IMG/VR virus record: IMGVR_UViG_3300017987_005501
Reading direction: 5' to 3' (one strand)
DNA length: 64,000 bases
DNA from: a virus
Taxonomy: Duplodnaviria; Caudoviricetes
Each line of letters begins with the position of its first letter. Positions within the stretch are counted from its first letter, which is position 1. Positions 39,001 to 64,000 of this stretch are shown here, in pieces. Made by a program: the position numbers.

Positions 39001-42000
39001 CAATTTTGAACATTAATTTCCATATTTATATTTAATGATTAAAAGTATATTAAGGGTTTTTCCAGGTTAAGTTTGCGGGAGCAATGGATTTTAAGGAGAT
39101 AAAGTTCCGGGTATCGTTAAAATAGCATTGACAACCACTAATTATAGCATTTAATTGTTCTTGGGCAACAGTTATGGGCACCTCTCCTAACCAAAAGGGT
39201 CCTTGAATAGAAGCCGAAGAATGAAAACTTGATATTGGGAAAGTTACATCGTAAGTAACCCCACCAGAAGTAAAAATCTGGGTTCCAGCTATTCCGGAAG
39301 CAAGAATATTAAATTCAGTTCCGGCACAAATAATGGGATGAACTTTTTGAATAAAATTCCCCCAGGCTGCCAAAGTATCCCCTGTTCCCAATTGAACTAT
39401 GCCCCCACTATCAAGGTCTAGATTAATAATATTATTCCCATTAATTACCCACGCAGAATTATTACTATCAATATTCAAACCCGAGGCTAGCCCACCACTT
39501 ATATAATAATTTCGATCCAAAATTCCATTTAGATCATACTTATAAACATCAGAAGCTATAGCGAAACAAAGACCAGATGCGTAATGAGTTAGGTCTAACC
39601 CCTTTAAGGCCCCGGATCCTAGCTCCCAACCAGATGCGACCGTTGGGGAAAAGGAGTCAAGAGTAAAAACTAAATTATTTCCGGACCCTGCTTGGTAGGC
39701 AGCGAATAAAGTCCCAGAAATTGGGTGCTGAGTAATGCCCCTATTAATATAACTATTGCCGAAAAAGAAACTTCCAGAAAGGGTATTCTTAAATCCGGAA
39801 GTTATTGCGCCACTTAAAACTCCCCCACCACTAACTAAAGTTAAGGAGAAAGTTTGAGTAGCAGTTTTATATCTTGCAAGCAATGAATCGTAGGGAGCTT
39901 GAGTATTTCTCAAAGCTGCCCACACAGATGAATTTTTAAATAAATCTGCATATAAATAATCACATAGGTACGTTCCGGTATTAATTCTAGAAAGCAGGCT
40001 ACCGCTTCCTCTATAAATTGAAATGGCAGCAGACCCTAAAGGCGAGTTAGCATTTCGTGCAGCCCATAAGAAATTATCATTTGCAGCAAAAGCATTAATC
40101 CCACCCGAAATAAGATCTAAATCAGTAAACCCAGCAGCCAAGTCATTAAACGAAAATTTCTTGATTAGGGACGAATTTGAGGCAACAATCCACTCAGAGG
40201 CACTTGTTGTATCGTAAATACTTGGTTGGAAAGAATCCATAATGGGAATAGTATTAACAATACTTTTTGATTCAACCCCAACTAAATTATAATTTGATGG
40301 GTTTCCTAAATAAAAATCAACAGTATTAGGATAATCCACCACGGTGTGTGCGCCACTTCCAGATAAGCACCCCAAGATACAAGGCCCAGTGGAACAATCT
40401 GTAATTGCAGAAGTAAGGGCACCCGAGGTATCAAACCCCGAACCTGTAAAGCCTGGCCGATCTGAAAGATCTATATTTTCAGTATATAAAACGCTAATAG
40501 GCTGGTCTAGCCCAATATCAATATCAAAATAATCGTTATAACTAAAATCACGAGGGATAGAAACACTGAAATATGAAGCACCGCTATACCAGCTACTAGA
40601 TGGGTCAGTAGCATCATTGTACCAATAAATCTTTACGATTGATCCTGGATATGGGTCTTCGCTATTACCTCGATTTTCGTTTAACTCTATCTCGTAAAAC
40701 CCATCTTTTTGTTGTAGAGCTACTTTATTTCTATAGGGGTAGTTTGTTATATTTGTAAAGTTAGGCGCCGTCTCGTCTATATGCCAAATGAGTAACCCTT
40801 GTGCCGTGTTGCCTGGGGTAGTTGTTGTTAACCCCGGAGCTAGCCCTGCGTCGTAGCCTATCGCTTGACGATACTCTAATAAGAAATACTCATAAGATTT
40901 AGTCGGGTGAGAAATTTTTACTAAAGTCCCACTTGTAAAAGACTTAGGGTCATAGAGGCGAACATTAAAAGTAGATTCGGATATCTCCGTAATTGGATAC
41001 CATCCTCCCTGCGAGCGCGTAAAAGCACTTGGGTAAGATGGGTTTCTTCCACGGACGACGTCATTAGGGGATAACCCCAAAAATTCGCCACTTCCCATAA
41101 TCCCGAAAAACCCAACACCAAAACTTCCGGATATCACGTTTCTCGGGGAAGCTTCTAGGTAGTCAAAACCTAAAGCTTTCCCAAGTTGTTTTGTCAAGCT
41201 CCCATTTAATCTAAAAGTTTCCTGTTCCACCCCCGGAACTGTAATTGTTCCTAGGGTATAAGTTTTAGGAGGTTTTGCCCAATTTAATAGTCTCCATTTC
41301 TCATCAAAACTTGGGTCTATGTATTTGAATTGATCATAGGATAAAGCAGACGTAAAAATAACATAACCATGGTAACCACTCGGCGCCGATGTTGGATTAT
41401 ACAAGGGGTAACCTTGCGAAATAGCATATCCGGAGACTTCGGAAGATAAATCATATGTGCCCGAAGCATAAGCTTGAATATCGTGTAATGCCGTATAAAC
41501 TGTTGGAATTACGTTTGGAGAAAAGCCCGACCCTACCCCTGTAGATAAATTAAACGAATACGATCCTTTGCTTGCATCTTCCCAAAAATCCGTAGCACTC
41601 TTCATCTTCTCGTAAAGATATGTATTATATCCAGAAGATGTTGCATCCGGAAAAGTTGCCCAAGGAGTGGTTACGTAAGGATCGTGGGCTGGAAAAGGCC
41701 CTGTCCCAAACTTGATATCCTGGAATTGAACTTTTATTCCTAGAAGTTTATATGTTCCTGAGACAAACATTAGTATTTAGAAGCAAAGATTACTGTAAAC
41801 TTTTCTGATGACGGCCTTAAAATTTCTTGTAAGGTAATTACATCGTTAACCTTGTAAAAATATTTCACATTCTTAATAAACTGGGACTTTTCTTCATTTG
41901 GCAATTTTGCCGAAATAATTAGTGTCCCAAATCTCTTTAGGACTTTCTGTAATTGCCCTAAAAACTTACCCTTATCCTTTAATTTAGTATAGGTATTGAA

Positions 42001-63000: not shown

Positions 63001-64000
63001 TCTTCGTAATAGACTGTAAGAGTTTGAGTTTGTGGGTCTCCTCCAGGTGGATCTTTTCTTGTATACTTTGCTCCGTTTACGAAAACTAATAATTGTTGTT
63101 CGTAATCGTTCCCAGCTTGTCCCACGATATAACTAAAAGGTAATGTAAATGTTACTTGTGCGGGCGCTGAAATTTGAACATCCCGTTGCGGTGGGTTAAT
63201 TCCAGGAGCATATAAGCTTTGTGCGCCAGCGACAACCTGAAACTCAATATTATCCCCCTCTGGGAAATAGGTTGTTGTAGAGCCCCAAAGGAAAGTTACT
63301 TTGTTAGAACGATAAATCCCAACTGTTTCCCCCGCTGGAACAAACTCTTCATAATTAACATTATTTAATAATTTAACGCCGTTTCTATAAACTAGTAACT
63401 CGTATCCACCTGTTAAATATTCAAAAGGTAATGTAGCTGTTTTTCCAGAAACTTGATTAAGGGGAATTCCAGGGAGTCCTTGCGTTATTCCCCCAGAAAC
63501 AAAACCAACATTGTTTATATCCCCGCCACTAGCAATCGTCCAGACATACCTTTCGGGAGAAACAACTTGGGCAGTCATTAAATTATTTATAGGACGAACT
63601 CTAGTAATCGGGGTTATTCTAACTTCATCGTCTGAAGATAATAATCCAAGATTTCCAGAAATAATTAATCTGTTATTTGCTGCGTCAGTATCCGTAATAG
63701 TATATGTTTTTCCGTTTAAGACGCCGGTAACAATGAATAGTTTATAACCATTAAATTGGTCATCTGTAGAAATCACAGATCCTTGCAAATTCACATAAGA
63801 TAAACTACTAACAATTTGAACAGACTCAACTGAAGCATCCGTTTCCGTTAATGCGGTCATTGTGTCCCGCAAATAAATTTCTGCTAAGGGAAACTTCCCG
63901 ATATGGGAAGGGGTAACTGGCTGAGCAGAATGGGAAACTTCAATTCCAGAAGAATATTCTAAGATACCACTCTCGCCAAGGGAGATTAGGTCTACCCGAT

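Follow-up and report, generated by a model that had tools for sequence, protein, structure and literature searches.

Can the excess of a single dipeptide in the putative tail-fibre proteins of a phage be read as the address to which its own glycosyltransferases (GTs) are directed? This question is raised by a stretch of 64,000 nucleotides of viral DNA (Duplodnaviria; Caudoviricetes; IMG/VR record IMGVR_UViG_3300017987_005501), here called the window, in which two GT4-family genes and one GT2-family gene lie within a row of large genes of the minus strand (39050-64000) whose products are rich in Ser-Gly (SG). An earlier sequence-only reading of this row had proposed that x-Ser-Gly is the acceptor sequon of a phage-encoded O-glycosylation pathway which coats the virion. 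We found that the SG excess is mainly a structural signature of a beta-rich class of tail-fibre proteins, extreme in two orphan proteins, and that it gives no ground for assuming an acceptor sequon; a role of the GTs in glycosylating the fibres by some other rule is the reading that we tentatively prefer.

The most SG-rich protein in the window has 906 amino acids and is encoded at 39050..41770 (minus strand). The hand count first given for it was exact on recount (31 SG, 14 GS and 6 TG), against 10.4 SG expected from its own composition, that is, an observed/expected ratio (O/E) of 2.97, a shuffle z of 7.1 and a Poisson P of 2e-7. When the eight fibre-like open reading frames (ORFs) were pooled, 111 SG were counted vs 51.7 expected (O/E 2.15), with GS at 1.16 and TG at 1.08, whereas the ORFs of the replication half (1-39030) gave an SG O/E of 1.12. 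In a scan of all 400 dipeptides SG was first in the fibre-like ORFs (z 8.2), followed by TF (z 4.2), and no dipeptide of the non-structural ORFs showed a comparable excess. It had also been noticed that SG usually follows a small or hydrophobic residue, and indeed Ala and Val are enriched 2.6- and 2.2-fold before Ser; moreover, hydrophobic residues are enriched at positions -2, +2 and +3 and small or aromatic ones after Gly, while charged residues are depleted at +1.

Several trivial sources of the excess were considered. The dipeptide is spelled by 21 different hexamers which use both Ser codon families, thus the bias acts on the protein and an origin at the DNA level was rejected. Paralogy among the fibre-like ORFs was rejected too, and so were internal repeats in the C-terminus of the 906-residue protein, where none was found; in the 1189- and 1591-residue proteins part of the SG does occupy conserved positions of internal repeats. 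The statement that the structural proteins are SG-rich holds for the pooled ORFs, but only two proteins are individually significant beyond the baselines described below, and the label of virion protein is itself weak to moderate.

Four baselines were used: cellular M6 proteins, structural ORFs of phage T4, ORFs from GT4 loci, and tail modules of the DUF4815 type, the last being the decisive one. In 156 cellular M6-family proteins of similar Ser, Gly and Thr (S/G/T) content the O/E was 1.27 for SG and 1.25 for GS, the highest SG value among the 121 M6 proteins of at least 500 residues being 2.2, and the head, tail and baseplate ORFs of T4 gave 1.16. Relatives of the GT4 encoded at 47736-48818 are carried by 76 viral loci in IMG/VR; 340 ORFs of at least 300 residues from these loci had SG values of 1.06-1.29 in every bin of S+G+T content (best single P 0.014), and 55 S/G/T-rich ORFs of the same loci averaged about 1.25.

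The decisive set consisted of 34 unique S/G/T-rich ORFs from 14 DUF4815-type tail modules (L087-L100) with no homolog of the window GTs within 8 kb; a hidden Markov model of the phrog_7162-type GT4s found no match in these 14 loci, and the tail-module ORFs contained a single GT25-family match. In these ORFs SG was again the top dipeptide of the 400 (296 vs 206 expected, O/E 1.44, z 6.2), with GS at 1.16. Single ORFs reached SG values of 1.7-2.4, well above those of GS (best P 0.002), examples being 38 SG vs 22.8 expected, 14 vs 6.0, 23 vs 12.5 and 27 vs 15.1. The context was similar as well, with hydrophobic residues before Ser, small ones after Gly and charged residues depleted. This largely bears out the objection foreseen in the earlier reading, that SG may be frequent without the GTs, and since the same bias with the same flanks appears without them, the excess is mainly a class feature of tail-fibre proteins. 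The sites would correspond to strand-turn junctions, with a small or hydrophobic residue, Ser-Gly and a small residue in succession. Over-representation of SG with GS near expectation has the look of a general signature, not described before, of fibre proteins of this class, and in scans of other genomes it should not be taken for a sign of glycosylation.

The complementary comparison, whether the SG excess accompanies the GTs, gave no general association. One viral contig (L005) carries relatives of both GT4 paralogs (37.5% and 39.4% identity) in tandem, directly after five S/G/T-rich ORFs which together have 22 SG vs 16.7 expected; in a 268-residue ORF adjoining the GT there are 7 SG vs 2.1 expected. 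In two further contigs (L096 and L097) a PimA-like GT4 gene directly follows a DUF4815 fibre gene, and the SG O/E is 1.28-1.67. Taken with the 76 GT4 loci, these cases do not show the co-occurrence that an acceptor sequon would call for, although a GT4 gene beside fibre genes is itself found in three independent lineages.

What, then, do the GTs do? Their identity and position were confirmed by Pfam and PHROG matches. The first GT4-family gene (41770..43380, minus strand) encodes the GT proper in residues 1-335, followed by a methyltransferase-like C-terminal domain (PF00534, 33.5 bits; phrog_7162, E 2e-45); the second (47736..48818, minus strand) encodes a soluble GT-B enzyme (PF00534, 29.0 bits; phrog_7162, E 8e-45). 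Both pass the Pfam gathering cut-off of 26.4 bits, and they are paralogs (29% identity, E 9e-43). The GT2-family gene (43373..44134, minus strand), encoding a soluble GT-A enzyme, passes that of PF00535 (E 3e-15, 56.8 bits vs 23.3; phrog_2456, E 1e-32), and it contains the acidic motifs DDAS and NDDV. By eye, the E-x7-E region of the GT4s reads NRSKSN[VL]K(F/S)(L/I)EY, which has the second Glu but another residue in place of the first. No membrane segment was found in any protein of the GT region. Reading frames of the GTs and their neighbours overlap at 41770, 43373-43380 and 47736-47746, the end of the 47736-48818 gene overlapping the gene of an 889-residue protein and its start the end of the neighbourhood of a 195-residue protein gene; these overlaps argue for one transcription unit and for translational coupling with the fibre-like ORFs.

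We consider that the three soluble GTs, probably transcribed and translationally coupled with large orphan fibre-like proteins, may act in the cytoplasm during virion assembly and build a short O-linked glycan on at least one of the neighbouring fibre proteins. This is plausible because the GTs are soluble and apparently coupled to fibre genes and because the adjacency of GT4 and fibre genes recurs in three lineages; we hold it tentatively, somewhat below an even chance, and as glycosylation that does not depend on an SG sequon. Of the virion glycosylation system first proposed, the embedding of the GTs in a tail-fibre-like late operon and their probable coupling with it are retained, and the x-S-G sequon is not supported. 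Several points weigh against the preferred reading. No nucleotide-sugar synthesis gene was found in the operon; the homolog of the GT4s in phage phi92 belongs to a cluster of four GT genes that is placed away from structural genes, between DNA polymerase and endolysin; and for most large ORFs, being orphans, the virion status is itself deduced from context.

The earlier proposal had also included a methylated or nonulosonic-acid glycan, which now appears speculative. The C-terminal ~200 residues of the protein encoded at 41770-43380 score 20.8 bits with PF13847, below its cut-off of 27, and the motif I region reads DADSLFGLS, without the GxGxG of the Gly-rich S-adenosylmethionine (SAM) loop, so this domain is best described as methyltransferase-like only. 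The NeuB-like gene (2901-3596, minus strand), which lies 35 kb away, gives a real match to PF03102 (E 5e-11, 43 bits), yet the product is a truncated TIM barrel of 231 residues that covers 158 of 241 profile positions; its TIGR03569 score is 47 bits, the cut-off being 399, and it lacks the full NeuB barrel and SAF domain at equivalog score. A neighbouring gene reported as a third GT-B enzyme (3661-4632, minus strand) can be called GT-B-like at most (PF00534, E 0.016; TIGR04047, E 3e-4). The methyltransferase said to lie elsewhere in the window is well founded, being a class I SAM methyltransferase far from the GT cluster (23619..24188, minus strand; PF08241, E 8.5e-12). Relatives of this enzyme were seen 1-3 kb from GT4 homologs in five viral contigs (L030, L050, L051, L058 and L059), which hints at a recurring pairing of GT4 and methyltransferase across them.

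The first alternative to fibre glycosylation is that the GTs act on a glycoconjugate of the host envelope or on another non-protein acceptor, for instance in masking a receptor against superinfection, in retention at lysis or in the synthesis of a small glycoside, and that their place in the operon reflects timing or insertion as a moron. The best NCBIfam likenesses are with EpsD, TuaG, IagA/BgsA, BshA and MshA, that is, GTs for exopolysaccharide, teichuronic acid, the lipoteichoic acid anchor and small molecules, all of them far below cut-off; PHROG places these families in the class 'moron, auxiliary metabolic gene and host takeover', and the genomic context of GT homologs varies. Nevertheless, the region showed no membrane segment and encodes neither a flippase nor a polymerase or lipid-carrier enzyme, the GT genes are apparently coupled tightly to fibre genes, and the neighbourhood of GT4 and fibre genes recurs in three independent lineages, hence we regard a non-virion acceptor as possible but rather unlikely.

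Before coming to the sequon itself, the protein that speaks most for it must be described. The 906-residue protein has an M6 (InhA-like) N-terminus and an orphan domain (residues 440-906). When modelled with AlphaFold2 (AF2) and compared by Foldseek, its N-terminus matched 4yu6 (E 3e-11, probability 1.0), and its 764 M6 sequence relatives cover only residues ~190-440. In 40 homologs the H, E and H of the HExxH motif are at least 90% conserved, and the 906-residue protein reads KQLGK there; with its zinc site so replaced, the N-terminus is on this model a catalytically dead M6 fold, a pseudo-protease. AF2 modelled the M6-like part only, residues 440-906 having a predicted local distance difference test (pLDDT) score of ~33, and no relatives of the C-terminal half were found in protein sets of 5.8 billion and 1.8 billion sequences. 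The structural neighbours of the dead M6-like domain (residues 1-430) that follow InhA2 are OgpA and Amuc_1438 (E 3e-4 to 7e-4), both O-glycan-dependent metallopeptidases, a likeness that may reflect only the common metzincin core.

According to the sequon model, the GTs O-glycosylate the fibre proteins at x-Ser-Gly, and the SG excess results from selection for many acceptor sites and a glycan coat. In its favour are a single outlier dipeptide, selected at the protein level and spelled by many hexamers, in ORFs that are not paralogs, and the position of the two strongest SG proteins close to the GTs. Some results are not absorbed by a class signature and weigh against the structural explanation given above. 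The 906-residue protein stands out by orders of magnitude, above all 121 M6 homologs, all 340 ORFs of the GT4 loci and all tail-module ORFs; 7 of the 10 SG sites in its M6-like domain are new with respect to 40 same-fold homologs, in which those columns hold other polar turn dipeptides; hence the bias of the class alone does not fully explain this protein. In addition, the 889-residue protein encoded between the GTs, which is Lys/Glu-rich and not beta-rich, has 9 SG vs 3.3 expected (P 0.006), and the 268-residue ORF mentioned above is similarly enriched beside a GT. In view of the outlier, its new sites and the 889-residue protein, a low probability is still left to the sequon idea. Against it stand the same bias and flanks in tail modules that have no such GT nearer than 8 kb (SG 1.44 overall and 1.7-2.4 in single ORFs), the fibre-like ORFs beside GT4 genes, which are not enriched (22 vs 16.7 in L005; 1.28-1.67 in L096 and L097), the value of ~1.25 in the 55 S/G/T-rich ORFs of the 76 loci, the absence of TG enrichment (1.08), flanks that are hydrophobic and depleted in charged residues, and the SG that belongs to conserved repeat cores. 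We thus judge the sequon model improbable, and equally doubtful its fullest form, in which a marine huge phage would use its GT4 and GT2 enzymes to glycosylate the Ser of [A/V]-S-G turns on the tail fibres, and the 906- and 1189-residue proteins would owe their extreme SG content to selection for a dense coat of glycans. Finally, an anti-restriction role of the GTs in glycosylating modified bases of the phage DNA is improbable as well, for although many phage GT-A and GT-B enzymes hypermodify DNA (10.1101/2023.12.21.572611) and the phi92 homolog is next to DNA polymerase, such DNA-GT genes typically cluster with ThyS, 5mYOX and C5-MT (10.1101/2023.12.21.572611), none of which was found beside the GTs or elsewhere in the window, and the GTs studied here sit in a probable late fibre operon. 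Among modified bases, 7-deazaguanines moreover lack the usual hydroxyl acceptor.

The gene row from 39050 to 64000, together with ~11 kb past the end of the window, is with moderate confidence a late baseplate and tail-fibre operon, a prediction that draws on an N-terminus of the DUF4815 type, on the BW3TFN-like product of a neighbouring gene and on leads to fibre families, each of them weak to moderate. Its genes within the window are all on the minus strand. The region past the window was read from Logan contigs of three runs (L081-L085), a walk that reached ~11.5 kb. At 60786..64000 the window holds the C-terminal 1070 residues of a DUF4815-type tail-fibre-like protein of 1591 residues, whose full length was read from L083 (SG O/E 1.69); it has four repeats of ~108 residues with a D-S-G-[WY] motif in each, and its N-terminus resembles PF16075 (DUF4815; E 8e-7, 28.1 bits vs a cut-off of 30) and phrog_877 (E 2e-11). 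Further upstream, beyond the window end, a 196-residue protein matches phrog_5417 (E 9e-26) and is BW3TFN-like (E 2e-5, 24.9 bits vs a cut-off of 27), BW3TFN being the 'baseplate wedge 3 tail fiber network component' family. DUF4815-type genes adjoin Baseplate_J and Tail_P2_I genes in 14 other viral contigs, and the annotations carried by PHROG_358/DUF4815-like proteins refer to baseplate, tail or virion structure (PMC8341000). The N-terminus of a 1170-residue protein encoded upstream of the 1591-residue protein gene weakly resembles that of the latter (BLASTP E 0.008). Between the gene of the 1170-residue protein and the BW3TFN-like one, ~8 kb past the window end (L083:3226-3642), is encoded a 138-residue retropepsin-like aspartyl-protease protein, which scores just below cut-off with both PF13975 (E 2e-5) and PF05618 (E 1e-5). 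The independent assemblies L081-L085 all stop at one point, ~11.5 kb past the window end and within a gene of more than 788 codons; such a shared break point suggests a repeat or a variable region there.

Downstream of the DUF4815-type gene comes a 348-residue fibre-like protein (59675..60721; SG O/E 1.18), which has in common with the 1591-residue protein a stretch with an AD(D/S)YH(S/T)H segment (BLASTP E 2e-5). In the 64-bp gap upstream of its gene there is a one-mismatch copy of a late-like motif, AATAATYYRTTAAT (60766..60779, minus strand), and an exact copy is found at 5221-5234 (minus strand), on the coding strand upstream of the NeuB-like/GT-B block; these two copies in the window vs 1.24 expected are not above chance. 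The 348-residue protein is followed by a 1364-residue orphan rich in Ser, Gly, Thr and Pro (55571..59665; 17 SG vs 9.5 expected), with no match in Pfam, PHROG, PDB or GenBank phages, and by a 262-residue orphan (54769..55557; 4 SG vs 2.1 expected). The 1189-residue orphan (51186..54755) has 23 SG vs 9.3 expected (P 1e-4) and four repeats of ~190 residues, each with a conserved SG...SG segment, 22 of the 23 SG falling after residue 460; searches of the 5.8 billion and 1.8 billion protein sets returned only the protein itself, and AF2 of one repeat, for which its three sister repeats served as the alignment, gave a pLDDT of 32.

Closer to the GTs are a 186-residue S/G/T-rich protein (50610..51170; 5 SG vs 2.3 expected), a 390-residue fibre-like protein (49425..50597; 9 SG vs 4.3 expected) and a 195-residue protein without family match in Pfam or PHROG (48826..49413). 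For the 390-residue protein the ESM Atlas gave sub-threshold leads to HylP, Peptidase_S74, Mtd_N, BppL_N and H_lectin clusters (scores 0.77-0.84, TM <0.5), all of them phage fibre or receptor-binding families. The 889-residue protein (45077..47746), located between GT4 and GT2, carries paired CxxC zinc-ribbon-like motifs and a weak match to DUF7129 (E 4e-4); also between GT genes are a 193-residue protein with a HEAAH zincin-like motif and no family match (44496..45077) and a 118-residue protein with no assigned function (44140..44496). As a whole, most large ORFs of the row have no relatives in Pfam, PHROG, PDB or GenBank phages.

From position 2425 on, nearly every gene of the window is carried by the minus strand in close-packed order. 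Positions 1-39000 encode gyrase A and B, a GroEL-type chaperonin, CobT, a type IA topoisomerase, and a DnaJ split by an RRXRR/HNH (IscB-like) gene, and further a GMP-reductase/IMPDH-like enzyme, DnaB helicase, a primase zinc finger, an SNF2 helicase, Hsp20, an Fe-S assembly protein, an MqsA-like protein and the class I methyltransferase already described. The MqsA-antitoxin-like protein (32897-33361, minus strand; PF15731, E 7e-9) is encoded within the replication module. The record of the 906-residue protein belongs to a contig of 283,534 bp; the source, an uncultured phage whose contig spans 283 kb or more, is a huge one. Neither the window DNA nor its large proteins had a match among GenBank phages by megablast and tblastn, the large ORFs had no relatives in a PDB sequence search, and a scan of IMG/VR with the 906-residue protein found none. 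A 536-kb contig reached via the SNF2 helicase (L004) has the replication module in common with the window but not the fibre and GT region, and LR756511 has only the GT in common.

Phage GT clusters linked to structural genes are already known; an SG sequon would be new, and if true it would count as the first to be defined for O-glycosylation of proteins by a phage-encoded system. Should the GTs decorate the fibres, self-glycosylation would extend from the heads and tail tubes of actinobacteriophages to the receptor-binding apparatus of huge environmental phages, with a bearing on host recognition, shielding from proteases and antibodies, and phage engineering. In unrelated phages GT4 genes are repeatedly placed directly next to fibre genes of the DUF4815 type, and this offers a concrete hypothesis.

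Among known systems, a close parallel is with actinobacteriophages, whose soluble, phage-encoded GTs are likewise considered to act in the cytoplasm on virion proteins of the phage itself. Che8, Corndog and Myrna glycosylate virion proteins (Freeman et al. 2023, as cited in PMC12619734 and PMC11256854), and the targets given in the former account are the C-termini of capsid and tail-tube subunits (PMC12619734), not fibres, and no SG sequon is described for them. Streptomyces phage Zuko has a GT4 relative (28.5% identity) together with a UDP-glucose dehydrogenase a short way upstream of its terminase. The window, in contrast, comes from a huge phage which, like its host, is uncultured, and its GTs are inside a fibre module. 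Giant viruses glycosylate their fibrils or capsids, as in the fibrils of Megavirinae, with their own GT clusters and sugar-synthesis genes, independently of the host (PMC10117803, PMC9614988); the window phage also has a NeuB-like gene and several GT genes, although those are eukaryotic viruses with other GT families and demonstrated glycans, and the likeness is one of analogy, not of homology.

At the level of single genes, gp163 of phi92 belongs to the same phrog_7162 family (E ~1e-45) and is accompanied by a second GT-B and a GT-A enzyme; it differs in the position of the cluster, described above. In the phi92 record (L086, 102200-105376) we observed four adjacent GT genes, namely two GT-B, one GT-A and one more, one of them the relative of the window GT4s. 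Baseplate-fibre modules of the P2/Mu type, lastly, resemble the row studied here in the DUF4815-like N-terminus, the BW3TFN-like neighbour and a moderate SG over-representation, whereas the proteins of the window are far larger and mostly orphan, are interleaved with GTs and display a stronger SG bias.

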